A stretch of DNA of 33,584 bases from Gammaproteobacteria bacterium (GTDB lineage: Bacteria > Pseudomonadota > Gammaproteobacteria > UBA4575). The stretch is taken from positions 1-33,584 of the forward strand of contig JANQKJ010000272.1 of NCBI GenBank assembly GCA_028281205.1, read 5' to 3'. Below, in pieces: positions 10,103 to 29,227 of the stretch. The notes under the pieces were generated by a model that was not told the origin of the DNA, made no database searches, and was given only the letters and a program-made list of their open reading frames with translations. Each line of letters opens with the position of its first letter. Within the stretch, counting starts at the first letter, position 1. The position numbers and the translations under genes were made by a program.

Positions 10103-10510
10103 TCAGTAGTCCGACCCCTCAATCATCACGCCAGCAAGTGTTGTGTAGGTTACTGCCCAAGCATCTTTCACTTCTGGAGTGAAATCATCTTTAAGGCCTT
10201 GTTCTAATGTCCATAGTAATGATGCACCTACTTTATCGTAATCTTCTGCTTTAACTCCATAATCAACATGCTTTTTACCTAATGCCTTGACTGGTTCAAT
10301 TAATGCTTCAATATTATCTAAGCCAGCAACTGCGGTATTGATCATCATCATTAGTTTTTTGCCTTGTTCTTTCATGTCTCCTTTGAAGTACGTTTTTACT
10401 TCTGGGTATTGTTCAAATAATCGATTGTAAAAGAGATCTGCTGCGGTCTCTTTAATTGGCATTACTTTTGCCCAAGATTGTTGAACGAGTTCTTTCTGCT
10501 CTGGGGTCAT
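10103..10510 (-). CDS. Single-domain 3/3 globin of the Vgb/Cgb/Hmp-globin type
   Basis: 135 aa with no signal peptide. LFYNRLFEQYPEVKTYF aligns by eye with Vitreoscilla Hb TFYKNLFAKHPEVRPLF (Tyr B10). KEQGKKL gives Gln E7. LGKKHVDYGV gives the proximal His F8. Its start codon directly abuts the stop of the upstream cytochrome c5 gene. Confidence 0.85.
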   Translation of the reverse strand: MTPEQKELVQQSWAKVMPIKETAADLFYNRLFEQYPEVKTYFKGDMKEQGKKLMMMINTAVAGLDNIEALIEPVKALGKKHVDYGVKAEDYDKVGASLLWTLEQGLKDDFTPEVKDAWAVTYTTLAGVMIEGSDY

Positions 10511-10891
10511 TTAATTGTCCTCTTTATTTATATAATATTCTGCAAGTGCTTTCATATAATCCACAGCTAGTTTTACTTCATTATCACTAAGGCTATCGTT
10601 ACCTCCTCTAGGAGGCATCATTGTATCTTCAGGCCCAAAGAAACCATTTATGGCGTGATCATATAAAATATCAATAGGTTTCACTACTCTGTCTTGCCAA
10701 TCTTTTGCTTTTAATGGGTTAGGAGATTCGGCGATGCCATAAGCATGACAGCCTTCACAGCTATCTATCCATATGACTCTTCCTTGGACTAAATTAGCTT
10801 GCTCAAAATGAACATACGTATCCTCTTCAGACAATGCTTGTGTACTGCCGAAGAGGATACATATGAAAATTAGTGTTGACTTAGTAATCAT
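10511..10891 (-). CDS. Periplasmic monoheme cytochrome c, c5 family
   Basis: Signal peptide present, single CEGCH motif, c5-like tail (MMPPRGGNDSLSDNEVKLAVDYM). Lies 3 nt after the preceding gene. Confidence 0.85.
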   Translation of the reverse strand: MITKSTLIFICILFGSTQALSEEDTYVHFEQANLVQGRVIWIDSCEGCHAYGIAESPNPLKAKDWQDRVVKPIDILYDHAINGFFGPEDTMMPPRGGNDSLSDNEVKLAVDYMKALAEYYINKEDN

Positions 10892-10894
10892 TAA

Positions 10895-11503
10895 CTAACC
10901 ACTAATAGGAATACGTATTACTACTCCTCCCATCACGTCACCCATTTTAAAGTCACGTTTAGGTGTGTCTTTATGGTCGTTATGACAACTTACACATACG
11001 GGCGCAACAGCAGTATCAGCATACACTGCAGTAAAATATTCAGTACCGCCAAGTTCTTCAGTTGCGTAGTAGTTTTGGCCTTTGTTTTCGGCAACAAATT
11101 TTAATCCTTCTTTCTCTACATCCGTTTTAGGAGCGTTTTGTTTATTGATTGGCCAAAGTGACTGTAATGAGTAACTAAAATTAACATCGGGTTTTTCTTC
11201 AGCACGTTTAGCTACCATTTCAGCGCCAAATCTAAACATCTGTGCAGGTAATACTAAGGCTTTGTCATCTTCGAAATGCTCACTTGCCTTAATGACTTTT
11301 TCTTTTTTAACCAAGCGATTAACAATTCTTTTTGTGTATACTGCACGATCTGAATCCATTACCAAATGTAATGCATCTGCCATCGCTTTTGGGGTAATTG
11401 ATGGGGTGGTGCCTGCATCTTTGGCGATAGCGATACCAGCACCAATGCTTAGACATGTGGCTATTGTGACAATAGCCAGGTTCATTTTTTTCTCTTCTTT
11501 CAT
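10895..11503 (-). CDS. Periplasmic DUF3365 / Tll0287-like c-type heme protein
   Basis: Signal peptide (MNLAIVTIATCLSIGAGIAIA; the true start may be the second Met at 11485). Single CVSCH near the C-terminus, followed by GDVMGGVVIRIP, as I recall for the family. AGGAG SD before 11503. Confidence 0.7.
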   Translation of the reverse strand: MKEEKKMNLAIVTIATCLSIGAGIAIAKDAGTTPSITPKAMADALHLVMDSDRAVYTKRIVNRLVKKEKVIKASEHFEDDKALVLPAQMFRFGAEMVAKRAEEKPDVNFSYSLQSLWPINKQNAPKTDVEKEGLKFVAENKGQNYYATEELGGTEYFTAVYADTAVAPVCVSCHNDHKDTPKRDFKMGDVMGGVVIRIPISG

Positions 11504-11581
11504 TGCTGTATGACTCCTATATTATGGTTGATACTAAAGTTAGTAGCTTGAGTGAAAATCAATACACAAATGCTACAAAGT

Positions 11582-12991
11582 TTATTCGGCATCCTGTTTC
11601 TCTTGTAAATATCTTTCTAAATCTTTTCTTGCTAAATCAATGCTTTCTACTTTGACTTTACTTAAACCATTAAAATTATTTTTAATTAAATCTTCATCTG
11701 CTAACGAATCAATAGCAAAACCAAGCCCATGACAATGTAAGCATGAAGATCGGATCATTTTGCTATTTGGAGACAAATTTGCGCTTTGGTTATGGTCGAC
11801 TAATTTTCTAGTAGTCCATTCGCTCACGTCATAGTCGATGCGGGGCATATGACAACTTGCACATGAGACACCTTGGTTTTCATGCTTGTTATCATTACTT
11901 GTTTGCTCTTGTATCCAGAGAGCATAATGTTTTGAATCTTTATAAGCTAATGAATGATCGTCGGCGTGACATTGAAGACAGCCATCTACAGCTGCATAAC
12001 TGACATCATAGTTATGTGCGCCATGACAACTATTGCAAGTCAGTTCTTTATGTGATGCATCACTATGCATAGGTAATAATGCTTGTGCTGGTGTCATAGC
12101 TGATAATCCAGCTTGTAAGCGCATGCCATGTTTACCTAATTTAAATCGATTCACTTCATGGTTATGGCATTGATTGCAACTATCCATGTTAGGAGAATCA
12201 TTCCAAACAGCTACTTGAGTTTTTTCAGTAATACTAATATGACACGCAGAACAGTTTACTCCTGATGCAGCATGAGCAGTGGTACTCCAGTCGTGGATGA
12301 TAGCTTCATCGTAATGTTTATCTTTTGGTGCATCTATTTCTTCTATGCTGAGTGCTTGTACTGGATATTTATCGCGAGGGTATTCAAGGATTTCATCCAA
12401 AACATCGAAAAACTCTTTCGCAGGAAGCGTTGCATTATTTTTATGGAAGGGGTCATCCATATGTTTAACAAGAAAATCTGTATATAGTGCGCGGTTGTTA
12501 TGGAAGTTATGACATCCGGAATCTTTGCACGTCATAAATGACATTCCTTCATGTGAAGGTCTTTCCTGGGCAATTTCTGCATGACAATGAAAACAGACAT
12601 CTCTTGGTTGAGTCAGGCCATCTTTTAAAGTTATTTCTGGTTTATGCTCAACGTGACAGCTAACGCAGTGAGTAGCATTAATTTTTTCTAAAGTATCTGC
12701 GTTACGAGGGTCCTTGAATTTCGACCTTGGGTGTGAGTCATTAGGCTTAACTCGGTCATCACCATGACAACTAATACAGGCATCTTGTAATATTTCGTCA
12801 CCACCAAAAGCACTGGTATGACATGTATCGCAAGCATCAACCAACTGGTGATGGCCTGGACTCAAGTCTCCAGGCATAAATAACGTTTTAGTTACTCCCT
12901 CAGACATTAGAAGGTAAGTAAAAAATAACGCAATGGCTACACTGGCTATCAGCCACGATACCCAGAACTGGAGATTGTTTTTTTTGTTCAT
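11582..12991 (-). CDS. Membrane-anchored multiheme cytochrome c with about 11 heme sites
   Basis: N-terminal signal anchor (FWVSWLIASVAIALFFTYLLM). Ten CXXCH motifs: CDTCH, CISCH, CVSCH, CFHCH, CSACH, CNQCH, CNSCH, CLQCH, CASCH and CLHCH. One CX4CH motif (CKDSGCH). No CXXCK motif. Confidence 0.9.
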   Translation of the reverse strand: MNKKNNLQFWVSWLIASVAIALFFTYLLMSEGVTKTLFMPGDLSPGHHQLVDACDTCHTSAFGGDEILQDACISCHGDDRVKPNDSHPRSKFKDPRNADTLEKINATHCVSCHVEHKPEITLKDGLTQPRDVCFHCHAEIAQERPSHEGMSFMTCKDSGCHNFHNNRALYTDFLVKHMDDPFHKNNATLPAKEFFDVLDEILEYPRDKYPVQALSIEEIDAPKDKHYDEAIIHDWSTTAHAASGVNCSACHISITEKTQVAVWNDSPNMDSCNQCHNHEVNRFKLGKHGMRLQAGLSAMTPAQALLPMHSDASHKELTCNSCHGAHNYDVSYAAVDGCLQCHADDHSLAYKDSKHYALWIQEQTSNDNKHENQGVSCASCHMPRIDYDVSEWTTRKLVDHNQSANLSPNSKMIRSSCLHCHGLGFAIDSLADEDLIKNNFNGLSKVKVESIDLARKDLERYLQEKQDAE

Positions 12992-13000
12992 AAATTAACA

Positions 13001-15010
13001 CTAATACCAGTAACCTTTTAAAATATGCCAAGCTAGTAATACTGGGATTGGCCAAAATAAAAGAATATGTATATACACAGATAAATGACGTGCGCGGGTT
13101 GCTATAGCATTACTTAATTTATGTTCTAAGCTGATTACACCAGATGAAATAGCACCGGCGATCAACATCATTGAAAAGCCAAGCATAAGAACAAAATTAA
13201 GGCCATTACCTAGCCGGAATCCGGTATGTGCAACTAATGTGACAACAACTAATACTCCCAGGCATATATGAGCTAAACGCCAGTAATCAAACTTACCTAA
13301 TTTGTCTAGCTTTCTTATTCGTTTGCGTAAAGATATTAATAATCCAATACTGAATAGTCCTAAGACGGAAAAACCCGATATCTGTTTAAATAAATCATTT
13401 CGCCAAAGTACGTCCCAATGCCAGCCGTTCTGTACTGTCGTTGCGTAAGGTAAATTTGGCGCAATATAAAAAAGTAATGACAAAATTAATGTCACTATAG
13501 AAAAACTTGTTAATGTTCTATACATTGAGGCCGGTTCTTTGTTTATGTTTGAGCCTATTAGCTCTTGAACTAAGGGCTTGCATGAACCACATACAGTGCT
13601 TGCGCCTGTTGAATCAGAAACCATTTGCACGCTATTTGCGCCTTGGTGGATACAATCGCTAATACTTCCGCGTGTGACGCTCATACATTGACAAACAACA
13701 GCTCTTGCCGGCCAGGCACTTACAGTATTACCAATATCTTCTGGCCAAATATTTCCAGTGCGTAAAAATCTTATAACTTGCCATGGATAAAATTTCGCAG
13801 CATTTCCAATAGTTGTTTGTAATCGTACTGTTTCATCCCATTGACCGATACCAATAGCTCCAACTAGGCGGTAGCGATGTACTAGAATCTTGCGGTATAT
13901 ACCTTTGCTTTCATCTTTATAAACATAATGCTTGCCATAATGTTGAATTTCGCTGTTACCCATTGGCCCCATACTAAATACTTGAGTATCGATTACCTTT
14001 AATCGAGAAGCAGCAACAGAACCTGAATATAAATGTTTGATATTTGCAATATTGGCAGCAGCGACACTCGCTTGCTCTAAACCAGGTGCAACTAAGCCAT
14101 AGATTTCATTGCGGTGTTCTGCACATTCTCCAACTGCATATATGTCTGCTTGCGAGGTTTGCATTGAATCATTGACAGTAATGCCTCTGTTATAAGCCAG
14201 CTTAGACCGTTTTGCTAATTCAATATTTGGTCTAATTCCAGTAGATAAAATGATTGTGTCACAATCAATATGTTTTCCTGAACGTAACGATAATCCCGTT
14301 ACACGCTCATCATTATCACCAAATATCTCGGTGACGCTATCTTGCGTAATTAATTCAATACCTAAAGATGTAATTTCTTTTTCTAGTATATTGGCTGCAT
14401 CGATATCAAGTTGATTGCTTAACAGACGATCCGCATGTTCTATCAGCGTGACTTTTGTATTTTGTTTTTGCATCGCACGTGCTGATTCAATACCAAGTAA
14501 TCCTCCGCCGAGGACCACAGTATGATGAGAGCGTGCACGTCTTGCGATTAAACTATTGGCATCTTTAAAGTTGCGAAATGTATATACGCCATGTTGATGA
14601 ATGCCAGGAATATTGGGTTCAAAAGGATAAGATCCTGTTGCTAATATTAATTTTGAATAAGGCTGTTTTCTGTCTGAATTGTCATAAATACATTTTTTAT
14701 CAATATCGATATTAGTCACTTTGAAACCAAAGCGCTGTTCTATATTACAATCAGATGGTATGTCTAATGGTTGTAATAATGATTCCCAATCGACATCACC
14801 TGCTAACCATGAAGATAGTTTAATGCGGTTATAGGGTTCTTGTTGTTCATCTCCATAGATAATGATGGAAGTATTAGGTGACTTTTTAATAATTTCTTTA
14901 GCAGTACGCATGCCAACCGGACCATTACCAATTATCACTAATGGTAATTCTCTTATCATAGAAACATTAGCTGAATTAGATTCCATGACTATGTGGCTGG
15001 TTGCTGACAT
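13001..15010 (-). CDS. Fusion protein: NirB-N-terminal-like FAD/NAD(P)H oxidoreductase, BFD-like [2Fe-2S] domain and a 5-TM bis-histidine (putative di-heme b) membrane domain
   Basis: Two Rossmann motifs (VIIGNGPVGMR, VVLGGGLLGIESA). Strong similarity to the first ~400 aa of the bona fide NirB at 19231 (for example AVGECAEHRNEIYGLVAP versus AVGECVQHRNVCYGLVAP). BFD pattern CQC...CGSC. Five predicted TM helices follow. TM3 is AHICLGVLVVVTLVAH (H581-x13-H595) and TM5 is HILLFWPIPVLLAWH (H648-x13-H662). No siroheme/4Fe-4S nitrite-reductase domain is present. Confidence 0.8.
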   Translation of the reverse strand: MSATSHIVMESNSANVSMIRELPLVIIGNGPVGMRTAKEIIKKSPNTSIIIYGDEQQEPYNRIKLSSWLAGDVDWESLLQPLDIPSDCNIEQRFGFKVTNIDIDKKCIYDNSDRKQPYSKLILATGSYPFEPNIPGIHQHGVYTFRNFKDANSLIARRARSHHTVVLGGGLLGIESARAMQKQNTKVTLIEHADRLLSNQLDIDAANILEKEITSLGIELITQDSVTEIFGDNDERVTGLSLRSGKHIDCDTIILSTGIRPNIELAKRSKLAYNRGITVNDSMQTSQADIYAVGECAEHRNEIYGLVAPGLEQASVAAANIANIKHLYSGSVAASRLKVIDTQVFSMGPMGNSEIQHYGKHYVYKDESKGIYRKILVHRYRLVGAIGIGQWDETVRLQTTIGNAAKFYPWQVIRFLRTGNIWPEDIGNTVSAWPARAVVCQCMSVTRGSISDCIHQGANSVQMVSDSTGASTVCGSCKPLVQELIGSNINKEPASMYRTLTSFSIVTLILSLLFYIAPNLPYATTVQNGWHWDVLWRNDLFKQISGFSVLGLFSIGLLISLRKRIRKLDKLGKFDYWRLAHICLGVLVVVTLVAHTGFRLGNGLNFVLMLGFSMMLIAGAISSGVISLEHKLSNAIATRARHLSVYIHILLFWPIPVLLAWHILKGYWY

Positions 15011-15042: not shown

Positions 15043-16377
15043 CTAAAAGTTAATACCACCCCAAAGCCAGAAGACTTTTTTATCTTCGCGGAAGTCATCG
15101 TCGCCATTGAAGTCTGCGTATTTAGCACCTAATGAGTAATGCTTGCCGAATTTCTTCACAGCAAGTAGATTAAGCTCATCACCATAATCATCAATTAACT
15201 GATCATCTTCTGGCTCGTATTCGTGGTAAACTGCAAGTAATTTGACACCATAGAACTTAGTTCCAACTGAAACGTAGGTGTCTTCGATTCCAGCAGTTCC
15301 TGCTGCACCATAAACACCTGATATTCCGGAGCCTAAGAACACATCAGCCCAACCTTGGAAAGCATGTAAAGTAGCAAAAGGTGTGATAAAACTTTCACCA
15401 TCGTCAACATCGCCTTCAAGCGTTTCCATGCCTACTTTAACTGTGATTGGTGCAAGGTTTGCAGCACCCGTTTTAAAACTCACGCCACCTTCAAGTAATG
15501 TGTAGTTTAAAGAACTGAAGTCATCTGCTTCTTTGTAATCATCTTGAGATGCATATTCGCCTGTGCCTAGCAATGTGATAGATTCAGACACAGGGAATTT
15601 ACCTTTTAAACGAATACCCGCGGTTTTGCGCGAATCATCTTCGCCAAATAACAGATTAACTTCTTCATCCCCTTCCCAGAGATAGTAGTAGCCTGTTGCA
15701 TCCAAGTACTTTAAGCCTGAATAGTTGATGTTAAAGTTGTTATTAGTGACATTGAAATCGCCTGCTGTGCCTGCTTGATCACCAAAAATGCGATTAACAT
15801 TTGTCTGGTGTGAATACATACCTCGTAAGCCATACTTTTTAGACTCTACTGTCACAAGAGTTGCGTCATAGGTTTGCTCGTTTTGTCTCCAACCAACATT
15901 GCCTATAAATCTATCGTTATCCCATTTTTGACGTTGCCGGCCATAGCGAATTAAAAAACTAGTATCTTCATAAGCATTACTAAATTGGATATATGCTTGG
16001 TTTAGTTCAGTTTCTTCAGGATCAGCAACAGTGTCGTATTCCAGATCTTCTTCGTCTAATGGGCCGGGGCCGTCATTATATTTTTTACTGCCTACTTCAC
16101 GAATGTCCTCCATTTCTGCAAATATCGAGAAACCATGAAAGTCTCCTGTTTGATAACCTAGGCGAGTGCGAATTGTTGATGCTTTAGCCTTATCACGATT
16201 TTCGCCCATTACAAGCGCGTCATCATCAACACCTTCGTAACGATAACGTACATTAGCTTTCAACTTTCCCCCAGTTAATGCTTTAGTAAATTCATCTACT
16301 TGACCGTCAGCAAATGTATAACTAGATTGCATGCCAAGTAGTAAGCAACTTGATAACGCAATGTTTAATAACTTCAT
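15043..16377 (-). CDS. Outer-membrane beta-barrel porin (family not assigned)
   Basis: Signal peptide ends in FA-DG. The sequence shows an alternating amphipathic pattern rich in Tyr, Gly and Asp. C-terminal WGGINF ends in Phe. GGGAGA SD. First gene of the minus-strand operon. Confidence 0.75.
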   Translation of the reverse strand: MKLLNIALSSCLLLGMQSSYTFADGQVDEFTKALTGGKLKANVRYRYEGVDDDALVMGENRDKAKASTIRTRLGYQTGDFHGFSIFAEMEDIREVGSKKYNDGPGPLDEEDLEYDTVADPEETELNQAYIQFSNAYEDTSFLIRYGRQRQKWDNDRFIGNVGWRQNEQTYDATLVTVESKKYGLRGMYSHQTNVNRIFGDQAGTAGDFNVTNNNFNINYSGLKYLDATGYYYLWEGDEEVNLLFGEDDSRKTAGIRLKGKFPVSESITLLGTGEYASQDDYKEADDFSSLNYTLLEGGVSFKTGAANLAPITVKVGMETLEGDVDDGESFITPFATLHAFQGWADVFLGSGISGVYGAAGTAGIEDTYVSVGTKFYGVKLLAVYHEYEPEDDQLIDDYGDELNLLAVKKFGKHYSLGAKYADFNGDDDFREDKKVFWLWGGINF

Positions 16378-16439
16378 GACTATTTATCTCCCTAGGTTTT
16401 TAAATAAGGTTGCCGATTAAAAATTTTTTTACGCGCATA

Positions 16440-16475
16440 AAAAAAGCCACAGCCAAATATTTCATTAGCTGTGAC
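16440..16475 (-). terminator. Leader intrinsic terminator (attenuator) upstream of the porin gene
   Basis: The minus strand reads GUCACAGC, a 14-nt loop, GCUGUGGC and then U6. The stem is 8 bp with one G-U pair. It lies between a sigma-54 promoter and the porin start codon, not at the end of any gene. Confidence 0.6.
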
Positions 16476-16509
16476 TTCTTCGTCTATTAGCTGAGCGTCT
16501 TTGATCAGC
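16473..16509 (-). promoter_or_regulatory. Candidate ANTAR (NasT) dual-hairpin binding element in the porin-operon leader
   Basis: On the minus strand, P1 is GCUGAuC-AAAGAC-GcUCAGC, with a hexaloop having A1 and G4. P2 is aGAC-GAAGAA-GUCa, and its 3' arm is the start of the terminator's 5' arm. Confidence 0.5.
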
Positions 16510-16536
16510 AAAGTTAAATTCTACTAATTCCGCTAG

Positions 16537-16552
16537 AGCAAAGATAATGCCA
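16537..16552 (-). promoter_or_regulatory. Sigma-54 (-24/-12) promoter for the porin operon
   Basis: The minus strand reads TGGCATTATCTTTGCT. This matches TGGCAC-N5-TTGCW, with GG and GC at canonical spacing. Confidence 0.65.
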
Positions 16553-16839
16553 ACATGTTATGAATTCTTCTAAGTAACTGACAAAGAAGTATAAAATCAT
16601 TTAGGCGCATAGTTTATCGACAACTATTTCTAAAACTTTAAGCACAATGATGAAGCGTAATATCAAAGGTAAATGTCGATTTTGTTCTGCATCGGTGCAT
16701 AGATTTCATGATCATTGATGAAATTAATTAAATTTGGTGTAGAAATTGCAATGGATTTTTAGAGCGTCAGAAAAAGTAAATGTATTTTTTCATTTTTCAG
16801 CATCATGCAAAGTAGTTAGCAAATAATGTTGTATAGCAA

Positions 16840-17442
16840 TTGGAGAACTGTGGCTTGAATAAATATTTATCTGTAATGTTAGTCGACAATGACCCTGTTA
16901 GGTCTGCAATTGTTGAAGAATATTTATTAGATAATGGATATCAAGTTGTTCAAAGGCTTGATTCAACAACTGACTTAGCTACTCAAATTGAGCAGATTAA
17001 GCCTGATGTGATTGTTGTTGATATTGATTCACCTGATAGAGACACTTTAGAGGATGTGCATTTAGCATCCAAAGATGAGCCGCGTCCAATAGTTTTGTTC
17101 ACGGATGATAGTAATAAGAACACGATGGATAAAGCTATTAAAGCTGGGATTAGTGCATATGTTGTAGATGGTTTAAGTAAATCCAGGATTAAGCCTGTTA
17201 TTGAAGTTGCAATCGCTAGATTCGAAGAATACCAAGCTTTAAGAAATGAATTAGATGAAGCTAAATCCAAGCTTGCAGATAGAAAAGATATTGATATCGC
17301 AAAAGGCTTACTTCAAAAGCAACACCATATGACTGAAGAAAGTGCTTATCAAGCATTAAGGAAAATTGCTATGGATCAAAAAATCACTATTGGGGCTGCA
17401 GCGCGTAATTTAATATCCATTAGTAAAATTATCAATTCATGA
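16840..17442 (+). CDS. nasT: NasT-type response regulator with an ANTAR RNA-binding antiterminator domain
   Basis: REC domain (MLVDNDPVR, VIVVDIDSPDRD) followed by an ANTAR domain (RKDIDIAKGLLQKQHHMTEESAYQALRKIAMDQKITIGAAARNLI). The start is ambiguous: TTG 16840, TTG 16855 (GGAG 9 nt upstream) or ATG 16876. Confidence 0.85.
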   Translation: MENCGLNKYLSVMLVDNDPVRSAIVEEYLLDNGYQVVQRLDSTTDLATQIEQIKPDVIVVDIDSPDRDTLEDVHLASKDEPRPIVLFTDDSNKNTMDKAIKAGISAYVVDGLSKSRIKPVIEVAIARFEEYQALRNELDEAKSKLADRKDIDIAKGLLQKQHHMTEESAYQALRKIAMDQKITIGAAARNLISISKIINS

Positions 17443-17561: not shown

Positions 17562-17577
17562 TGGCACACTTTGTGTA
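17562..17577 (+). promoter_or_regulatory. Candidate sigma-54 promoter for the nrtA-like/nirBD/nasA operon
   Basis: TGGCACACTTTGTGTA has a perfect -24 TGGCAC element but an imperfect -12 element (GTGT instead of TTGC). The call is supported by spacings to the upstream inverted repeat and downstream hairpin P1 that match those at the 26575 promoter. Confidence 0.5.
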
Positions 17578-17606
17578 AGATAATATATGTAAAATAGATT
17601 ATTGCA

Positions 17607-17659
17607 CTGAGAATTCGCAATGAAGTGAAGCTCAGAAATACGGTTAAGACAACGACGTC
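17607..17659 (+). promoter_or_regulatory. Candidate ANTAR (NasT) dual-hairpin element in the nas-operon leader
   Basis: P1 (17607-17635) is CUGAG-aa-UUCGC-AAUGAA-GUGAA-g-CUCAG, with a hexaloop having A1/G4. P2 (17648-17659) is aGAC-AACGAC-GUCa. The P2 loop and 3' arm form the terminator's 5' arm. Confidence 0.6.
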
Positions 17660-17702
17660 AGATTGTTCATTGGAAAATGAGCGATGTGCGTCGTTTTTTT
17701 TT
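17651..17702 (+). terminator. Leader intrinsic terminator (attenuator) upstream of the nrtA-like gene
   Basis: AACGACG (17651-57) pairs with CGTCGTT (17689-95). An internal helix forms between GTTCAT and ATGAGC. A run of nine T follows (17694-17702). The element lies 83 nt upstream of the ATG at 17785. Confidence 0.65.
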
Positions 17703-17784: not shown

Positions 17785-19203
17785 ATGAAAAAGAAAGAAC
17801 TTAATATAAATAAATCATTTGTCAGTTCGCGAAGAGAATTTATTAAAACTTCAATGGGTGTTGCTGGCGTTGGTTCTTTGCTGGGTATATCGGAGCTGGG
17901 TTATGGGTCAACACAAAGCAGGGGAAATAACATGCTAGAAAAAACCAACATTGATCTAGGATTTATACCGTTAAACGATTGCGCAAGTTTGGTGATCGCA
18001 AAAGAAAAATCCTATTTTGAAAAGCACGGTTTATCTGTCACTTTAAAGAAACACTCTTCATGGAGTGGAATTCGTGACAACGTGATGCTAGGTGCTTTAG
18101 ATGGTGCACATATGCTGGCTAGTATGCCAATTGCGACAACACTCGGTATCGGCACTGTAAAAAAAGCAACTATTACACCGTTTACGATGGCGTTAAATGG
18201 TAATGGTATTACAGTTTCACACGAATTATATGCGCGCATGCTGGAAGCTGATCCGGTAGCCATGCAAGAAAAACCTGTAACGGCTAAAGCACTTAAAAAA
18301 GTAATCGATGAAGATAAGGCTAAAGGCAGACCGCAAATGACATTTGCTACTGTTTTTCCAGTGTCTACTCATAATTATGAATTACGCTACTGGATGGCAG
18401 CGGCTGGCATTGACCCAGACAAAGATATTCGTCTGACTGTGATCCCCCCTTCATACATAGTTGAAAACTTAGAAGCGAGGACAATCGTTGGATGCTGTGT
18501 GGGCGAGCCTTGGAATGCTGTGGCGGTGAATGAAGGTGTGGGTAGGACGTTAATAACTAAGTATGAATTATGGAACAACAGCCCTGAAAAAGTGTTTGGT
18601 GTTAATCAGGAATGGGCTGAGAAACACCCCAATACATTGAATGCGATTTTAAAAGCGCTAATAGAGGCATCTATTTGGTTAGATGATTCTGAAAATAGAC
18701 TGCAAGCGGCACAAATCCTTGCTCAAGAAAACTATGTTAATGCACCGTTAGATGTAATGAAAATGTCTATGACCGGGACGTTTCAATATGCACGTCATTT
18801 ATCACCAGAGCCAATGCATGACTTTAATGTTTTTCATCGTTATTCAGCTAACTACCCATGGGCGAGTCATGCGCAGTGGTTTATTAGCCAAATGTTGCGA
18901 TGGGGGCAAATTGAAAGTCCTTTATCAATTTCCGAGTTAGCCGCAAGTGTGTATCGCCCTGATCTCTATGCGCGTGCAGCAAGTGAATTGAATATCAATA
19001 TTCCAAGCTCAATGGTCAAGCAGGAAGGTATACATGATAGCAGTTGGCAACTTTCCGAAGCAGGCAGTGGAATCATGATGGGGCCGGATAAGTTTTTTGA
19101 TCAGCGGGTTTTTAATCCAGCTCAAGTGGTGGACTACATTTACGATTTTGCTATTTCTGCTCCGCGTATGACTAAAGATGAATTAAATATAGTTAATTCA
19201 TAA
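17785..19203 (+). CDS. NrtA/NasS-family nitrate/nitrite-binding protein, the paralog in the nasS position, with a Tat-like signal
   Basis: NrtA-family blocks are shared with the 26747 paralog ([33 protein letters not shown]). The N-terminus SRREFIKTSMGVAGVGSLLGI matches the Tat consensus S/T-R-R-x-F-L-K. An in-frame internal ATG at 17932 is preceded by AGGGGA. Confidence 0.85.
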   Translation: MKKKELNINKSFVSSRREFIKTSMGVAGVGSLLGISELGYGSTQSRGNNMLEKTNIDLGFIPLNDCASLVIAKEKSYFEKHGLSVTLKKHSSWSGIRDNVMLGALDGAHMLASMPIATTLGIGTVKKATITPFTMALNGNGITVSHELYARMLEADPVAMQEKPVTAKALKKVIDEDKAKGRPQMTFATVFPVSTHNYELRYWMAAAGIDPDKDIRLTVIPPSYIVENLEARTIVGCCVGEPWNAVAVNEGVGRTLITKYELWNNSPEKVFGVNQEWAEKHPNTLNAILKALIEASIWLDDSENRLQAAQILAQENYVNAPLDVMKMSMTGTFQYARHLSPEPMHDFNVFHRYSANYPWASHAQWFISQMLRWGQIESPLSISELAASVYRPDLYARAASELNINIPSSMVKQEGIHDSSWQLSEAGSGIMMGPDKFFDQRVFNPAQVVDYIYDFAISAPRMTKDELNIVNS

Positions 19204-22019: not shown

Positions 22020-24206
22020 ATGTTATTTGGAAGGAAGAATAAGAATCCAATTAAAATTGCAGACAAAGGTGTGGTCGAATGGAAATATGCAACCTGTGGC
22101 TACTGTTCAACGGGTTGTTCGATTGAAGTCGGTATTGATAAAAAAGGTGAAGCAGTTGCTTCCAGGGGAGTTGCTGATGCTGATGTTAACCGTGGCAAGC
22201 TATGTATTAAAGGTATATATGAGCATGAATTGTTTCGTAAAACCAGGGGTCGTGGAAATAAACCATTAATACGTGAAAATAGATGGGACGAATTTCAAGA
22301 AACAAACTGGGATACAGCATTAAGTAAAACTGCTGATGAAATAAAACGTATCCAACAGCAGTATGGCCGCGATGCTTTTTCGATTGTATCCACTGGTCAG
22401 ATAATGACGGAAGAATTTTACACTTTGGGTAAACTTGCCCGAGGCGTGATTGGTACTAATAATTACGATGGCAACACTACACTGTGTATGTCGTCAGCAG
22501 TTTCCGGTTATAAACGCTCATTTGGTTCAGATGGCCCACCTGGATGTTACGAAGACTTTGAACATACCGAATGTTTATTGGCGTTTGGATCTAATTTGCC
22601 CGAACAGCATCCAATTATCTATTGGCGCTTAATGGATGTACGTGAAAAACACAACTTTCCATTAATTGTTATTGATCCCCGTGTGACTATGTTTGCTCAG
22701 CAAGCAGACATGCATTTGGCTATAAATCCTGGAACCGACTTGGTGCTATTAAATGCTTTGGCACATGTTATTTTAGCTGAAAAACTCCATAAGCCAGAAT
22801 ATATTGAAGCATATACTCAAGGCTACCAAGAATTTGCTGAACTTGTTGCGCAATATGACCCTGTAACAGCTTCAAAAATCTGTGGCATTGATGAAGATAC
22901 TATTCGTAATGTCGCACGAGTATTTGCCAAGGCAGGAGCGGCCATGTCTATTTGGACTATGGGTATTAACCAAAGTACTCACGGTTCCGATGGTGTCGCG
23001 GCAATTAATAATTTGCATTTAATTACCGGCAATTTAGGTAAACCAGGCGCAGCTTCTTTATCAATTACCGGTCAGTGTAACGCAATGGGTACACGTGAGT
23101 GGTCATCATGTTCTGGTTTGCCGGGATATCGTTCGTTAGAGAATGAACAAGACCGAAAAGAAATATCTGAGTTTTGGGGAGTAGATCCAGAATTCTTCCC
23201 TAAAGAACGCGGCATGTTCATGACAGATATTTTACCCGCCATCGAAACTGGAGAGGTTAAAGGCCTATGGCTAATTGCCACCAACCCAATGACCTCGATG
23301 GCAAATACTGCACGTATCCGTAAGACATTAGAGAAACTTGAATTTCTCGTTGTACAAGATGCTTATCAGGACGTTGAAACTAATCAATATAGTCACGTTT
23401 TTTTGCCTGCTGCTATTTGGGCGGAAAAAGAAGGGTGTTTCACAAACACCGAAAGGCGTGTGAATATTATTCGCAATGTCTGTGAACCCTATGGAGAATC
23501 AAAAACTGATTTATGGATATTTAATCAAATGGCTAAACAATTTGAGCGCGGCCAAAATGTAATATTTCCTGAATCAGCAGAAGGTGTGTTCGAAGAGCTA
23601 AAAACATTATCTAAGGGGCGTATGTTAGATTACTCAGGTATGTCATACGAAAAAATTGAACAGTCGCGTGGCATCCAATGGCCGTGTAATGAAGAACAAT
23701 CACCTCAAGGCACGCAACGATTATACACAGATGGTGTTTTCCAAACTGCTTCCGGCAAAGCAAACTTATTAGCACTACCTTTTATTGATAATAACGAACG
23801 TCCCGATAAGGATTATCCATTTTGGTTGAATACGGGGCGGGTAGTTGAGCATTTTCATACGCGCACCCGAACTGGCAAAGTCGCGAATGGAAATAAATTC
23901 AGTCCAACACCATATATGGAAATGAATCCCGATGCTGCAGCAGAATTAAATATTCAACATGGTACTTATGCACGTTTAAGTTCGCGTCGTGGTGATGCCA
24001 TCGTTATGGTGCAGTTAACTCAACGTGTAGCAAAAGATACGGTATTTGTTCCATTTCATTTCCATGAGTGTGTGAACCGACTTGCATTAGGCTTACTAGA
24101 CCCGCATTCACGCCAACCTGCATATAAACAAAGTGCAGTACATATAGAGAGAATAGAGAACCAGCAGGACGCAGCACAAAAGAACGCTATGGCTAGGAGT
24201 TATTAA
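22020..24206 (+). CDS. nasA: Assimilatory nitrate reductase catalytic subunit (molybdopterin, NarB/NasA type), cytoplasmic
   Basis: N-terminal 4Fe-4S motif CGYCSTGCS...C. MopB-family core. The 728-aa length lacks the C-terminal 2Fe-2S extension. No twin-arginine signal is present. Confidence 0.9.
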   Translation: MLFGRKNKNPIKIADKGVVEWKYATCGYCSTGCSIEVGIDKKGEAVASRGVADADVNRGKLCIKGIYEHELFRKTRGRGNKPLIRENRWDEFQETNWDTALSKTADEIKRIQQQYGRDAFSIVSTGQIMTEEFYTLGKLARGVIGTNNYDGNTTLCMSSAVSGYKRSFGSDGPPGCYEDFEHTECLLAFGSNLPEQHPIIYWRLMDVREKHNFPLIVIDPRVTMFAQQADMHLAINPGTDLVLLNALAHVILAEKLHKPEYIEAYTQGYQEFAELVAQYDPVTASKICGIDEDTIRNVARVFAKAGAAMSIWTMGINQSTHGSDGVAAINNLHLITGNLGKPGAASLSITGQCNAMGTREWSSCSGLPGYRSLENEQDRKEISEFWGVDPEFFPKERGMFMTDILPAIETGEVKGLWLIATNPMTSMANTARIRKTLEKLEFLVVQDAYQDVETNQYSHVFLPAAIWAEKEGCFTNTERRVNIIRNVCEPYGESKTDLWIFNQMAKQFERGQNVIFPESAEGVFEELKTLSKGRMLDYSGMSYEKIEQSRGIQWPCNEEQSPQGTQRLYTDGVFQTASGKANLLALPFIDNNERPDKDYPFWLNTGRVVEHFHTRTRTGKVANGNKFSPTPYMEMNPDAAAELNIQHGTYARLSSRRGDAIVMVQLTQRVAKDTVFVPFHFHECVNRLALGLLDPHSRQPAYKQSAVHIERIENQQDAAQKNAMARSY

Positions 24207-26041
24207 TGTTTAAGTATCAACGCCCAAATGAACAAAGTTATGCATTTTTACCTCTGGTAAATCATCCTGAGAAAAATCGTTATGGGGACTCAATTGAAAC
24301 AGTACCAGAAGGACATGAACTAAGAGGTAAAAGCTTAAACATCAATAATGATGATGGTATTGGGGATAATGCTAACCGATACAAACAACATGGCTTCTAC
24401 TTTACAGCCGATAATTGTATTTCTTGTCATGCCTGTGAGGCTGCGTGCTCAGAAAAAAATGATTTGCCGTCACATATTGCGTTTCGCTCTGTTGGTTATG
24501 TTGAAGGTGGTTCTTATCCTGCTTACAGCCGGTTGAATATTTCTATGGCATGTAATCATTGTGATGATCCGGTATGTTTAAAAGGTTGTCCAACACGTGC
24601 TTATACAAAATTTGCTGAATATGGCGCAGTTTTACAAGATCCGGATATTTGTTTTGGCTGTGGTTATTGTACATGGGTATGTCCATATAATGCGCCTCAG
24701 CTTGATCAAGAAGCAGGACAAGTTGAAAAATGTAATATGTGTGTTGATCGACTTGAAGTGGGCTTAAAGCCAGCCTGTGTATCTGCATGTTTAGCAGGTG
24801 CACTAGATTTTGGTGTAATTGAAACAACGCCTGAGAATAGAACCCAATTAGAAACAACTATCCCAGGCTTTCCTAATAGTGATATCACACACCCTAATAT
24901 CCGATTTCAGCAAACTAAAAGTTTACCTAATGAAATGAAGCGTACAGATAGTATGCCCATCCGTTATGAAAAAGATTTACAAGGTGAGTATCAATCTAAA
25001 GTTGATGAAAAATCGCAAGCAATGCAGTGGAGTTTTAAAAAACTAAGTACTCGAGAAAATCCTTTAGTGGTATTTACATTGATTTCACAATTAGTAATAG
25101 GCGCATTTATTCTATTATTTATTGGACCAAAAATAGGTATTGCAACAATCACTGCCACCTCCAACCCAATAGTGTGGCCATTATTTCTGTTTGCACTTAT
25201 TAGTGTTCAAACGCTCGCGCTGGTATTATCAACCATGCATCTGGGAAAACCGCATCGTTTTTATCGTGCATTCAATAATTTGAAATACTCACCAGTCAGT
25301 CGCGAAGTTGCAGGGATTGCAGTGTTCTATAATTTTTTAGGTGCTTACACGTGTCTAACTGGCTTGCCAGTGTTGTTTACATGGCTACCTGATGCAGTGT
25401 TGTCGACGTTAGTCGTTGTTACTGGTTGGGGTGCGACTTTATCTGGTTTAGCAGCATTATATTTCATGCATGCAATCTATCGTATACCGGCACGACCTTA
25501 TTGGAATCACTGGTCAGTTTTGAATGCATTTTATGGCTCAATGTTGTCATTAGGCCCATTATTAATTGGAAGTTTGTACTTTTTAATGGCTATGTTAGTT
25601 GGTGAGAATAACTTGCAGGTGCTAAATAATATAGCGTTGATTATAGCGATAGGTATAACCATTGAGTTGCTTGGTTTATATGCACATGCTCGCTACCTAA
25701 AACATCATAGTGGTGAATCTCAAGCATCTCATTACCAGCAGATAACACAATTTGGAAAAACTTATTGGTTGCGAAATATTTTACTGTCATTGTCAGCTAT
25801 TAGTATGTTTGCTATGAGCGTAATTAATTTTGAAATAAATTTAGCCTTAATTGCTTGGTGGGCAGGCTGTATTATGATTATCATAGCAGCAGTGTTAGGA
25901 CGTAGTTTATTTTATGCGTTAGTGATACCGACGACTATGCCTGGTGCTTTCTTTTGGAAGAATAAAGGTTTTGAAGAGCATGCTCGGGAGTCGGGCTTGG
26001 CGAGTAGAACGGATGCAGGTGTTCTTATTAACGCACATTAA
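24206..26041 (+). CDS. Fusion of a four-cluster 4Fe-4S ferredoxin domain (DmsB/NrfC-like) to an 8-TM DmsC-like quinol-interacting anchor
   Basis: Cys groups CISCHACEAAC, CNHCDDPVCLKGCP, CFGCGYCTWVCP and CNMC...CVSAC. About 8 hydrophobic helices follow, with the DmsC-like motif STMHLGKPHRFYRAF...SPVSRE. The start overlaps the nasA stop (TAATG) and is preceded by AGGAG. No signal peptide. Confidence 0.8.
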   Translation: MFKYQRPNEQSYAFLPLVNHPEKNRYGDSIETVPEGHELRGKSLNINNDDGIGDNANRYKQHGFYFTADNCISCHACEAACSEKNDLPSHIAFRSVGYVEGGSYPAYSRLNISMACNHCDDPVCLKGCPTRAYTKFAEYGAVLQDPDICFGCGYCTWVCPYNAPQLDQEAGQVEKCNMCVDRLEVGLKPACVSACLAGALDFGVIETTPENRTQLETTIPGFPNSDITHPNIRFQQTKSLPNEMKRTDSMPIRYEKDLQGEYQSKVDEKSQAMQWSFKKLSTRENPLVVFTLISQLVIGAFILLFIGPKIGIATITATSNPIVWPLFLFALISVQTLALVLSTMHLGKPHRFYRAFNNLKYSPVSREVAGIAVFYNFLGAYTCLTGLPVLFTWLPDAVLSTLVVVTGWGATLSGLAALYFMHAIYRIPARPYWNHWSVLNAFYGSMLSLGPLLIGSLYFLMAMLVGENNLQVLNNIALIIAIGITIELLGLYAHARYLKHHSGESQASHYQQITQFGKTYWLRNILLSLSAISMFAMSVINFEINLALIAWWAGCIMIIIAAVLGRSLFYALVIPTTMPGAFFWKNKGFEEHARESGLASRTDAGVLINAH

Positions 26042-26574: not shown

Positions 26575-26590
26575 TGGCAAGATATTTGCT
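26575..26590 (+). promoter_or_regulatory. Sigma-54 (-24/-12) promoter for nrtABD
   Basis: TGGCAAGATATTTGCT has GG and GC at canonical spacing and an intact TTGC -12 element. Confidence 0.7.
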
Positions 26591-26627
26591 GAGTGTAAAG
26601 TAAGTTTAGAATTTTTAATTAATTGCA

Positions 26628-26667
26628 ATCACCAACGAAGGTGATCAGCAAAACAGACAGAGGTGTC
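26628..26667 (+). promoter_or_regulatory. Candidate ANTAR (NasT) dual-hairpin element in the nrt-operon leader
   Basis: P1 (26628-26645) is AUCACC-AACGAA-GGUGAU, a perfect 6-bp stem with a hexaloop having A1/G4. P2 (26656-26667) is aGAC-AGAGGU-GUCa, which overlaps the terminator's 5' arm. Confidence 0.6.
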
Positions 26668-26711
26668 AACGTGTACCCGTTATTGGGCGGCACGTTGACA
26701 CCTTTTTTTTT
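26662..26711 (+). terminator. Leader intrinsic terminator (attenuator) upstream of nrtA
   Basis: Perfect 12-bp stem between GGTGTCAACGTG (26662-73) and CACGTTGACACC (26691-702), followed by nine T (26703-11). It lies 36 nt upstream of the nrtA ATG. Confidence 0.8.
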
Positions 26712-26746
26712 GAGAAAAAGTTTCAATTATTTAAGGAGTGATTTTT

Positions 26747-28162
26747 ATGAAACATGTTTGCAGTTCTCTCCCGCTAGCTTCTGGAGGTTCGCAAGAATAT
26801 GTCAAACATTTTTTGCTAAGTGTGATGATTATTATCAGTGCCGTCATTGCAAATAATGTAAACGCAGAAAAACTTGGATACCCGGAGAAAGAAGAACTGA
26901 AATTTGGGTTTATTAAATTAACAGACATGGCACCGATTGCTATTGCTTATGAAAATGGATATTTCGAGGATGAAGGTCTCTACGTCACAATTGAAGCACA
27001 AGCAAACTGGAAAGTATTGTTAGATGGAGTCATTGACGGTCAGCTAGACGGAGCTCATATGCTGGCGGGCCAACCAATTGCTGCCACCATGGGGTTTGGT
27101 ACTAAAGCGCACATCATTACACCATTTTCTATGGACTTAAATGGCAATGGCATTACGGTATCAAATGAGATCTGGGCCCAAATGAAACCAAATATTCCTA
27201 AAATGGACGACGGTAGGCCTGTGCATCCAATCAAGGCGGGTGCGTTAAAACCTGTGGTTGAAAAGTATAAAGATGAAGGTAAGCCATTTAATATGGGTAT
27301 GGTATTTCCTGTATCAACACATAACTATGAATTGCGTTATTGGTTGGCCGCAGGTGGAATCCATCCTGGATACTATGCACCACATAAAGGAGATATTTCT
27401 GGGCAAATAGATGCCGATGCTTTGCTTTCTGTGACGCCTCCACCGCAAATGCCTGCAACATTAGAAGCAGGGACTATATATGGTTATTGCGTGGGTGAAC
27501 CATGGAACCAACAGGCTGTATTTAAAGGCATTGGCGTACCAGTGATTACTGACTATGAAATCTGGAAAAATAATCCCGAAAAAGTATTTGGAATTACTGC
27601 TGAATTTGCAGAAAAATATCCCAATACGACAATAAGAATCGTGCGTGCATTAATCCGTGCCGCAATGTGGTTGGATGAAAATGACAATGCTAATCGTCCA
27701 GCTGCTGTAAAAATTCTATCTCAGTCGAATTATGTCGGTGCAGATTACGACGTTATAGCAAATAGTATGACGGGTACATTTGAATATGAAAAAGGGGACA
27801 AACGCGAAGTTCCAGACTTCAATGTATTCTTTAGATATAACGCTACTTACCCATATTATTCAGATGCAATTTGGTATCTAACGCAAATGCGCCGCTGGGG
27901 CCAAATTTCTGAAGACAAGTCTGATGATTGGTATAAAGATATGGCAGCAAAAGTTTATAAGCCAGATATTTATGCTAAAGCTGCCTTGTCATTAATAGAA
28001 GAAGGTCTAGCAGATGCAAAAGATTTTCCTGACTTTGCTACTGAAGATGGATTTAAAGATCCTCAAACAGAGTTTATTGATGGCATCACATTCGATGGAA
28101 CGAAACCAAATGATTACATTGATATGTTTCCAATCGGTTTGAAGTCAGGCGATAAAGTTTAA
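26747..28162 (+). CDS. nrtA: Nitrate ABC transporter periplasmic substrate-binding protein (NrtA/NasF)
   Basis: The ATG at 26747 is preceded by AAGGAG with 8-nt spacing; the ORF track starts at GTG 26738. The signal peptide ends in [10 protein letters not shown]. NrtA blocks: [33 protein letters not shown]. Confidence 0.9.
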
Positions 28163-28189
28163 AAATATATTTGTTTAAAGGAAGTATGT

Positions 28190-29185
28190 ATGAAGGCTGC
28201 AACATCATTAACTACAAAGCTAAATATGACGGGCATGTCTCCAAAGATGTCTGGCTTAATTGCTGGTTCGTTACAAAATCTGGTGATTCCTCTAGCTGGA
28301 ATTGTGTTTTTTTTAGCTTTCTGGTCGGTTGCAGCCTCAAACATCAATACATCGTTAGGGAAGTTTCCTGGCCCTAATGCGGTATGGACGCAATTAAATA
28401 GCCTTTATGTCGAACATAACGAAGAGAGAACCAAAGAACAGGCATTTTACGAGCGGCAGAAAAAACGCAATGCTGAACGTGTTGCGCAAGATCCAGATTA
28501 CGTGCCAAAAATTCGTTCCTATACTGGTAAAGAGACATTTTTAGATCAAATTGTCACGAGCTTGCTTACTGTTATGAGTGGATTTTTATTAGCTGCTGTT
28601 ATAGCTATCCCGTTAGGAATTGCTATTGGTTTAAGTAAAACGCTAAATACTGCATTTAACCCTGTTATTCAAATTTTCAAACCCGTGTCTCCATTGGCCT
28701 GGTTACCTTTGGTAACTATGGTTGTTAGTGCCCTTTATGCTACACCTGATCCGGTGATACCAAAATCATTTTTAAATTCGATGATAACGGTAACGTTATG
28801 TTGTTTATGGCCCATGGTAATCAACACATCGGTCGGTGTAGCATCTATTAATTCTGATTTAGTAAATGTAAGTCGGGTATTACGTTTGCCAGCATTGAAG
28901 CATATCCAAAAAATTGTCTTACCTGCATCAATACCTATGATATTTACTGGCATGCGCACATCTTTAGGGATTGCATGGATGGTGCTCATTGCAGCAGAAA
29001 TGCTCGCACAAAATCCTGGTCTAGGTAAATTTGTATGGGATGAATTTCAAAATGGCAGTTCTGATTCTTTGGGAAGAATTATGGCAGCAGTTGTTGTTAT
29101 TGGTGCCATAGGTTTTTTCTTAGACCGTTCAATGCTGCAAATTCAAAAATTTGTGTCCTGGGATAAAACATCTGCTAGTAGATAA
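28190..29185 (+). CDS. nrtB: Nitrate ABC transporter permease (NrtB/NasE)
   Basis: 331 aa and polytopic. Contains a BPD-transporter EAA-like region (AAEMLAQNPGLGKFVW). Lies between the binding protein and the ATPase. Confidence 0.9.
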   Translation: MKAATSLTTKLNMTGMSPKMSGLIAGSLQNLVIPLAGIVFFLAFWSVAASNINTSLGKFPGPNAVWTQLNSLYVEHNEERTKEQAFYERQKKRNAERVAQDPDYVPKIRSYTGKETFLDQIVTSLLTVMSGFLLAAVIAIPLGIAIGLSKTLNTAFNPVIQIFKPVSPLAWLPLVTMVVSALYATPDPVIPKSFLNSMITVTLCCLWPMVINTSVGVASINSDLVNVSRVLRLPALKHIQKIVLPASIPMIFTGMRTSLGIAWMVLIAAEMLAQNPGLGKFVWDEFQNGSSDSLGRIMAAVVVIGAIGFFLDRSMLQIQKFVSWDKTSASR

Positions 29186-29227
29186 GTATTAAGAATTTAA
29201 ATTTTTATGATATTTGGAAATTAAGCT

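Follow-up and report, generated by a model that had tools for sequence, protein, structure and literature searches.

The window analysed here, a 33,584-nucleotide (nt) stretch of contig JANQKJ010000272.1 from a member of the Gammaproteobacteria (lineage UBA4575, assembly GCA_028281205.1), carries on its minus strand an operon of six genes that starts with an outer-membrane porin and continues with haem and flavin proteins. Which signal governs this operon, and what does its control tell about its role? An earlier note, made from the sequence of the window, had proposed that the leader between the porin gene and the divergent nasT gene shares its design with nitrate-assimilation leaders, and had seen in this the link between the operon and nitrate sensing. 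According to the present analysis, positions 16439-16552 are, with good confidence, a sigma-54-driven transcription attenuator of the six-gene porin operon that would respond to the ANTAR protein NasT. This reading was adopted because of the conservation, the covariation and the genomic context of the leader.

All elements of the leader were read on the minus strand of the nasT-porin intergenic region. The putative promoter TGGCATTATCTTTGCT (16552-16537) matches the sigma-54 (-24/-12) consensus TGGCAYN5TTGCW exactly, with its GG-N10-GC core, and is the sole exact match within the window. Standard spacing from the -12 element would place the transcription start near 16526. After 27 intervening nt comes hairpin P1, GCUGAUC-AAAGAC-GCUCAGC (16509-16490), which displays six pairs, one internal U.C mismatch and a hexaloop with A at position 1 (A1) and G at position 4 (G4). 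It is followed by a 5-nt linker, UAAUA, and by hairpin P2, GAC-GAAGAA-GUC (16484-16473), with a stem of three base pairs (bp) and a hexaloop that again displays G4. The GUC at 16475-16473 serves both as the 3' arm of P2 and as the first three bases of the 5' arm of an intrinsic terminator hairpin (16446-16475), whose 9-bp core pairs 16475-16467 with 16454-16446. Direct reading of the sequence gave a tract of seven U (16445-16439), and a 61-nt spacer (16438-16378) then leads to the porin ATG (16377). This spacer is AT-rich, and the Shine-Dalgarno sequence AGGGAG (16393-16388) is its only conserved piece.

Most of this anatomy had been described before. The promoter, then called near-consensus, is in fact an exact one; the P1 loop with its A1 and G4, the linker of 5 nt, P2 itself and the distance of about 60 nt to the porin gene were all found as described. 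P1 was correctly located, but at 27 instead of 28 nt from the promoter. The terminator does begin in the 3' arm of P2, but its stem had been given as 8 bp and has a 9-bp core with 17 predicted pairs, and a U tract of six was one too short.

As to the definition of such leaders by Ramesh et al. 2012 (PMC3369931), the two stems of at least 3 bp, the hexanucleotide loops and the linker are all present. The leader also displays G4 in both loops, A1 in loop 1 (not in loop 2), a P2 3' arm common to the terminator 5' arm, and the U tract.

Computational folding, which had been suggested as a check of terminator against P1 and P2, predicted both states. The 82-nt core folded into P1 and a 17-pair terminator (-28.9 kcal/mol, z -4.8 versus shuffles), the pairing of GAAGAA with the U tract extending the stem to this length. 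The minimum-energy fold of the nascent 57-nt RNA was P1 plus P2 (-9.1 kcal/mol, with -6.1 for P1 and -3.0 for P2). When P2 was enforced, GGC lay between the residual hairpin and the U tract, a gap that should disable intrinsic termination. A simple terminator scan missed the hairpin of the porin leader because its loop exceeds 8 nt.

The mechanism proposed from these elements is as follows. Under nitrogen limitation, sigma-54 RNA polymerase would start near 16526, and the first 57 nt of RNA would fold as P1 and P2. If P2 is left unheld, its GUC arm would be captured by the far more stable terminator stem abutting the U7 tract, and transcription would stop about 60 nt before the porin ATG, leaving a short leader RNA. 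An active NasT dimer would bind both hexaloops, with G4 flipped out onto a conserved tyrosine; P2 held in this way would keep GUC, the residual hairpin would no longer reach the U tract, and the polymerase would read into the operon. We infer three of these steps: where transcription starts, that NasT binds and that nitrate is the signal.

The proposal had been staked beforehand on the conservation of P1 and P2 in orthologous leaders, and this conservation was found. Close relatives of the porin numbered about 18 (52-88 % identity), and DNA was recovered for ten of them; one (L082) ended 37 nt upstream of the porin gene and was excluded from the comparison. In L170, L171, L081 and L001 the redox genes known from the window come after the porin gene, and all four displayed the full leader design. 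Together with the window they form a comparison of five leaders. The promoter 16-mer was identical or near-identical, and in the same place, in the four relatives. The P1 loops were AAAGAC, AAUGAU, AACGAC, AACGUC and ACUGCA, so that A1 and G4 were kept in five out of five while the other four positions varied. The P2 loops were GAAGAA in the window, GACGAA in L170 and AACGAA in L171, L081 and L001, with an invariant G4 and an invariant stem. Pair 5 of P1 varied in a compensatory manner (A-U, A-U, U.G or C-G), and the internal mismatch of this hairpin was conserved. The terminator core was paired in 45 of 45 cells, with compensatory changes in four of its nine pairs, and the U tract of the orthologues ranged from U7 to U9.

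Five further relatives, in which only the porin is present (L161, L162, L163, L164 and L172), displayed neither dual hexaloops nor a comparable terminator, and the sigma-54 motif was kept in three of them. The porin stands alone at the same Che/AhpC locus as in the window in L161 and L162, and beside other genes in L163, L164 and L172. The absence of the attenuator from these porin-only relatives indicates that it travels with the redox operon. The porins of L161 and L162 are 77-80 % identical, and these loci have the same flanks as window positions 9357-33443 (Che cluster, AhpC, HAD and photolyase). They are devoid of the nas/nrt island and of the five redox genes, and a cluster of ATP-grasp, Alpha-E and peptidase genes occupies the position of the nas island.

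The design recurs in the window itself, in the leaders of two nitrate-assimilation operons, as the earlier note had claimed. The second leader (17562-17702, plus strand) precedes NMT1_2-nirBD-nasA and displays P1 UUCGC-AAUGAA-GUGAA, P2 GAC-AACGAC-GUC (17648-17659), a terminator and U9. Its sigma-54-like sequence TGGCACACTTTGTGTA has GT and not GC in the -12 element, which is a caveat to the shared design. The third leader (26575-26711, plus strand) precedes nrtA-nrtB-nrtC (26738-30076) and displays a sigma-54 motif with one mismatch, TGGCAAGATATTTGCT (26575-26590), P1 UCACC-AACGAA-GGUGA (26629-26644), P2 GAC-AGAGGU-GUC (26656-26667), a 13-bp terminator and U9. P2 is GAC-N6-GUC in all three leaders. 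Since the same logic would apply to the nirBD-nasA and nrtABC leaders, the three operons would form one regulon.

Two covariance models were used. Model R1 was seeded with 13 porin leaders, including that of the window, and was run unfiltered over the window; by rank it retrieved the porin leader (39.9 bits), 26628-26672 and 17613-17663 (both plus strand). Model R2 was a leave-out model composed of 38 leaders of other loci or lineages only. It placed the same three sites first, with 15.6, 9.0 and 7.9 bits, the nrtABC leader being the best match (15.6 bits, E 0.027). The three leaders were the top three matches for both models in the 67 kilobases (kb) searched.

The presumed regulator is a NasT-type antiterminator with REC and ANTAR domains according to Pfam, encoded at 16840-17442 on the plus strand and divergent from the porin leader. 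A domain search of the open reading frames of the window bore out the statement that it is the only ANTAR protein there. Among solved structures, Rv1626 and EutV come closest to it. In the crystal structure of EutV with RNA, a tyrosine stacks on G4, a methionine forms a plug, Arg, Lys, Glu and Arg make further contacts, and A1 has no protein contact (PMC8934654). Residues Y170, M178, R148, K155, E166 and R174 of NasT align with Tyr164, Met172, Arg142, Lys149, Glu160 and Arg168 of EutV, the tyrosine on G4 and the methionine plug being conserved (PMC8934654). The receiver domain keeps its acceptor Asp (VVDID), and its conserved Lys-Pro is replaced (YVVDGL versus YLVKPL in EutV), which hints at a non-phosphorylated, partner-controlled receiver.

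The wider distribution was followed with porin homologues of 36-44 % identity at 160 further genome and metagenome loci. About a third of them adjoin nrtA/nasS-like genes and 27 lie near a nasT. At E <=1, R1 gave 64 matches in 164 porin-homologue loci, all in the sense of the downstream gene. Matches lay directly upstream of the porin in 29 of the 164 loci, and most others lay upstream of nrtA/nasS-like genes. Among 39 aligned R1 matches, six of the seven P1 pairs displayed compensatory changes and 96 % of cells were paired, versus 78 % in shuffles, while P2 was conserved in sequence (GGRC/GUCC). Sigma-54 motifs precede porin or flavoprotein (fadTM) genes in many distant loci. The five-gene module without a porin was encountered in Thiosocius teredinicola, Thiogranum and other gammaproteobacterial and betaproteobacterial assemblies, with a sigma-54 motif in every upstream region that was read. 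In Thiosocius teredinicola and Thiogranum it is preceded by hexaloop hairpins with an overlapping terminator, and the Thiogranum leader, located directly after a nasT gene, scored 32.4 bits (E 4e-6).

The P2 loops of this wider set were overwhelmingly AAAGGC or AACGGC, and G at position 1 (G1) occurred in L013 only, plus L037 by eye. Taking all leaders together, G1 recurs in four (window, L170, L013 and L037; loops GAAGAA, GACGAA, GAAGAC and GAAGGC). Each of them stands before a porin-then-flavoprotein operon, in two cases in a distant lineage; this recurrence could be due to chance or reflect a weaker, tuned site. L013 also displayed another attenuator behind the porin gene, ahead of that of the flavoprotein (11482-11521). 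A second ANTAR-type leader was likewise located directly downstream of the porin in the distant loci L009, L011 and L022 (~11450-11610), as in L013, before a flavoprotein or nrtA/nasS-like gene. The porin and the next gene are apparently attenuated separately in these loci.

Several results weigh against a NasT-responsive attenuator. The P2 loop GAAGAA (16476-16481) has its G4 but displays G at position 1 and not A, which the earlier note left unremarked; the P2 stem is just 3 bp long and P1 carries an internal mismatch. Mutations of A1 lower the function of EutV and NasT in the systems tested (PMC3369931, PMC10783516), and G1 in P2 could weaken the NasT site. As A1 is not contacted by the protein (PMC8934654), G1 may be less damaging than genetics might suggest. 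The motif search recommended earlier gave a divided outcome: the porin leader ranked in the top three with both covariance models, but reached only 9.0 bits with R2 (second-best in the window, E ~1.3), so that a blind motif search would not call it. This low score is explained by three traits typical of this AT-rich lineage (the window has 38 % GC), namely the mismatch in P1, the 3-bp stem of P2 and its G1. No relevant Rfam family matched the leader at gathering or permissive thresholds. The pairing counts from the aligned R1 matches lean towards structure because the alignment was fitted to the model. In L081, no nasT was present within 8 kb upstream. Finally, no cytoplasmic NasS was found within the 33.6-kb window. 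The NMT1_2 (NrtA/NasS-like) protein next to nasT (17785-19203, plus strand) displays a twin-arginine (Tat) motif, SRREFIK (SRRKFL in L171), and the second one (26738-28162, plus strand) has a Sec-type signal. With export signals on both, the nitrate-sensing partner of NasT was not identified in the window; its gene may lie outside, and a NasS-like protein without signal peptide is present in the corresponding Thiogranum cluster (L167).

Chance expectation gave a mixed picture as well. For the exact sigma-54 consensus, one match in the window compares with 0.23 expected, and 21 of 100 shuffles contained at least one, which is not significant alone. A loose scan, which required a pair of hexaloop hairpins ([A/G]1, G4) and a terminator overlapping them, returned exactly three sites in the window, the three leaders; first-order Markov resamples averaged 2.6, which also counts against the reading. 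A strict scan (terminator >=8 bp, T >=7, P1 >=5 bp, linker <=20, with thresholds set post hoc from the real sites) returned two window sites versus 0.007 per resample. An exact sigma-54 motif at most 50 nt upstream of a loose composite would be expected ~4e-4 times per window, by simple arithmetic from the two scan expectations. Since the composite count was not above chance, reliance was placed on site quality, context and conservation, and the comparative evidence is the stronger argument.

These results bear on three other explanations. The terminator might be real while NasT does not control its read-through, which would then depend on another RNA-binding protein or on Rho/Nus factors, or would simply damp a strong sigma-54 promoter constitutively, with P1 and P2 incidental or otherwise bound. 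The 9 bits with R2, a P2 loop lacking A1 on a 3-bp stem, the ~2.6 loose composites per window expected by chance and the missing NasS would all fit. We nevertheless regard such an attenuator as improbable: A1 and G4 of P1 and G4 of P2 are invariant in the orthologues while other loop positions drift, a consensus-loop motif precedes homologous operons beside nasT in distant bacteria, and porin-only relatives lost the hairpins together with the terminator. It is very improbable that the leader is no attenuator of the porin operon at all, which would require that the sigma-54 match arose by chance, that the real promoter lies within the 61-nt spacer, and that the hairpin insulates the divergent nasT region or ends a stand-alone small RNA. 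One exact match is indeed no rarity, given its frequency in shuffles, and a terminated leader would be a short RNA like NalA in Pseudomonas (PMC10783516). Such a product is however compatible with attenuation and offers no true alternative; no upstream minus-strand gene needs a terminator, the spacer is AT-rich with nothing but its Shine-Dalgarno sequence conserved, and the sigma-54 16-mer keeps a fixed spacing in five orthologous leaders and recurs in distant loci.

The last explanation accepts a NasT-responsive leader but lets NasT report something other than nitrate or nitrite, for example a phosphorelay or another ligand, the NasS-like protein being exported. The signal peptides of both NMT1_2 proteins, with a Tat motif conserved in L171, and a receiver that keeps its acceptor Asp while losing the conserved Lys speak in its favour. 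All three target operons, however, either consist of genes for nitrate/nitrite assimilation or lie in a cluster with such genes, the gene of a cytoplasmic NasS may lie beyond the window, and the Thiogranum cluster does hold a NasS-like protein without signal peptide; we consider another signal rather unlikely. The link to nitrate sensing drawn in the earlier note is thus upheld by the orthologues as far as the design of a NasT target is concerned, while its nitrate step is taken from the NasS-NasT literature.

Some minor features of the intergenic region were also recorded. A sigma-70-like site, TTGTCA-18-TAACAT (16555-16584, minus strand), agreed with the consensus at 9 of 12 positions in a consensus scan and might serve as an alternative promoter. 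The site immediately precedes the sigma-54 motif, and a start from there would also lie upstream of the hairpins. Blocks TGCAC, GCATCA and GTGCTTAA, resembling NtrC half-sites, were noticed by eye 60-170 nt upstream of the sigma-54 motif (16600-16720, minus strand), and appeared by eye to be conserved in the matching regions of L170, L171 and L081. In the window and its orthologues, TGCAC and GTGC blocks were also noticed by eye at 100-170 nt upstream. The terminator loop (16455-16467, minus strand) contains AAUGAAA in the window and equally in L170, L171 and L081, and a short open reading frame begins at this AUG. A leader peptide encoded there was rejected, as the frame has no Shine-Dalgarno sequence and neither its length nor its end is conserved.

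How does a NasT-type porin leader compare with known systems? The promoter of the nirBD leader of Pseudomonas is of the NtrC/sigma-54 type, as the putative promoter of the porin leader would be. The NalA/nirBD leader of Pseudomonas aeruginosa and P. putida, controlled by NasS-NasT, displays, like the leader described here, two A1/G4 hexaloop hairpins and a Rho-independent terminator overlapping the second (PMC10783516). That leader is read through upon binding of NasT, likewise a REC and ANTAR regulator (PMC10783516), and the same is proposed for the porin leader. It differs from the Pseudomonas system by the operon it precedes, which is a porin-led haem/flavin operon and not nirBD, by G1 and the 3-bp stem of P2, and by the lack of a cytoplasmic NasS in the window. 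In Klebsiella oxytoca, the nasF leader likewise serves nitrate assimilation and has an intrinsic terminator preceded by a hexaloop hairpin whose A1 and G4 are required (PMC3369931). Its regulator NasR is a one-component NIT-ANTAR protein, whereas that of the window is REC-ANTAR. The eutP leader of Enterococcus faecalis, bound by EutV, also displays dual hexaloop hairpins, a short linker and P2 bases common to the terminator (PMC3369931); it differs in pathway (ethanolamine), signal (EutW kinase) and promoter type. Taken as a regulatory element, the leader belongs to textbook NasT/ANTAR biology, and the addition made here is the assignment of an operon to it. Through this leader the widespread haem/flavin redox operon would be placed under nitrogen control, and probably under nitrate control as well.

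The first gene of this operon (15043-16377, minus strand, as are all the following) encodes an outer-membrane porin of the Alginate_exp family (PF13372), and leader matches predict that porins of this family are common ANTAR targets. It is separated by 32 nt from the gene of a NirB-like FAD/NAD(P)H and [2Fe-2S] flavoprotein of 669 amino acids (13001-15010), which matched TIGR02374 over positions 1-475 only. Where NirB has its sirohaem half, this protein carries a membrane domain with four invariant histidines, and no Pfam family covered this membrane part. Its motifs, WR..H, HTG and H..L.WP.P.LL..H, were noted, and the domain is consistent with the binding of two b-haems.

Next comes a membrane-anchored cytochrome c with 11 haem motifs (11582-12991), ten CXXCH and one CX4CH (CKDSGCH). 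All 11 were invariant in 33 homologues at ~60 % identity, and the anchor is N-terminal. More than 2,500 homologues were retrieved at E <=1e-5, the 120 best being ~57-78 % identical, and public records name them just 'cytochrome c3 family protein'. Sequence and profile comparison with the PDB gave only local similarity of haem motifs to NrfA, octahaem nitrite reductase and MtrC, and the AlphaFold2 model was poor (predicted local distance difference test, pLDDT, of 55). The operon continues with a Tll0287-like haem protein (10895-11503), for which PDB sequence and profile searches found nothing, a cytochrome c (10511-10891) and a single-domain globin (10103-10510) similar to the N-terminal domain of the nitric oxide (NO)-inducible flavohaemoprotein (E 7e-23).

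Literature searches on porin and NasT, alginate export and nitrate assimilation, Tll0287/DUF3365 and undecahaem did not turn up any account of the operon. The undecahaem Uet porin-cytochrome complex of Tenderiales (PMC10734462) was weighed and set aside, since the module occurs without the porin and the porin without the module, and the cytochrome is N-terminally anchored.

Tentatively, and with appreciable doubt, the operon may be a nitrogen-oxide-handling machine within the nitrate-assimilation regulon of many Gammaproteobacteria. The NirB-like flavoprotein would pass electrons from NAD(P)H across the inner membrane to the 11-haem cytochrome, the Tll0287-like protein and the cytochrome c, and all three would serve in the periplasm to reduce or detoxify nitrite, NO or hydroxylamine. 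Re-reduction of the cytoplasmic globin may be a further task of the flavoprotein, and the leading porin would admit nitrate or nitrite. A precedent for such handling is found in Bradyrhizobium, where assimilatory nitrate reductase is expressed together with a globin and a flavoprotein that remove NO (PMC4724949); NasT of this genus also controls genes beyond nas, namely nap and nos (PMC6759348). The alphaproteobacterial cluster contains no porin, multihaem cytochrome or membrane-fused flavoprotein, unlike the window operon. Its globin and flavoprotein genes are named bjgb and flp.

The module thus delimited comprises an optional porin, the NirB-like membrane-fused flavoprotein, the 11-haem cytochrome, the Tll0287-like protein, an optional cytochrome c and the globin. 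As a conserved group of five or six genes it appears to share with nirBD, nasA and nrtABC both the nitrogen-limitation promoter and the nitrate-type antiterminator, and this wiring holds in the genome of the window as well as in distant sulfur-oxidising bacteria. An anonymous operon thereby becomes a testable candidate for the periplasmic handling of nitrite, NO or hydroxylamine during nitrate assimilation. If it is indeed a nitrogen-oxide machine, the module would gain its first functional handle through its sigma-54 promoter, which is conserved, and its ANTAR attenuator, which is frequent.

A last observation concerns the nitrate-assimilation genes of the window. Positions 22020-26041 (plus strand) contain the gene of an assimilatory-type molybdopterin nitrate reductase, followed by that of a 611-amino-acid fusion of a DmsB-like 4Fe-4S protein with a DmsC membrane anchor. 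L001, L164 and L172 share this conserved fusion, which is apparently an unusual membrane-linked electron donor for the NasA-like enzyme.

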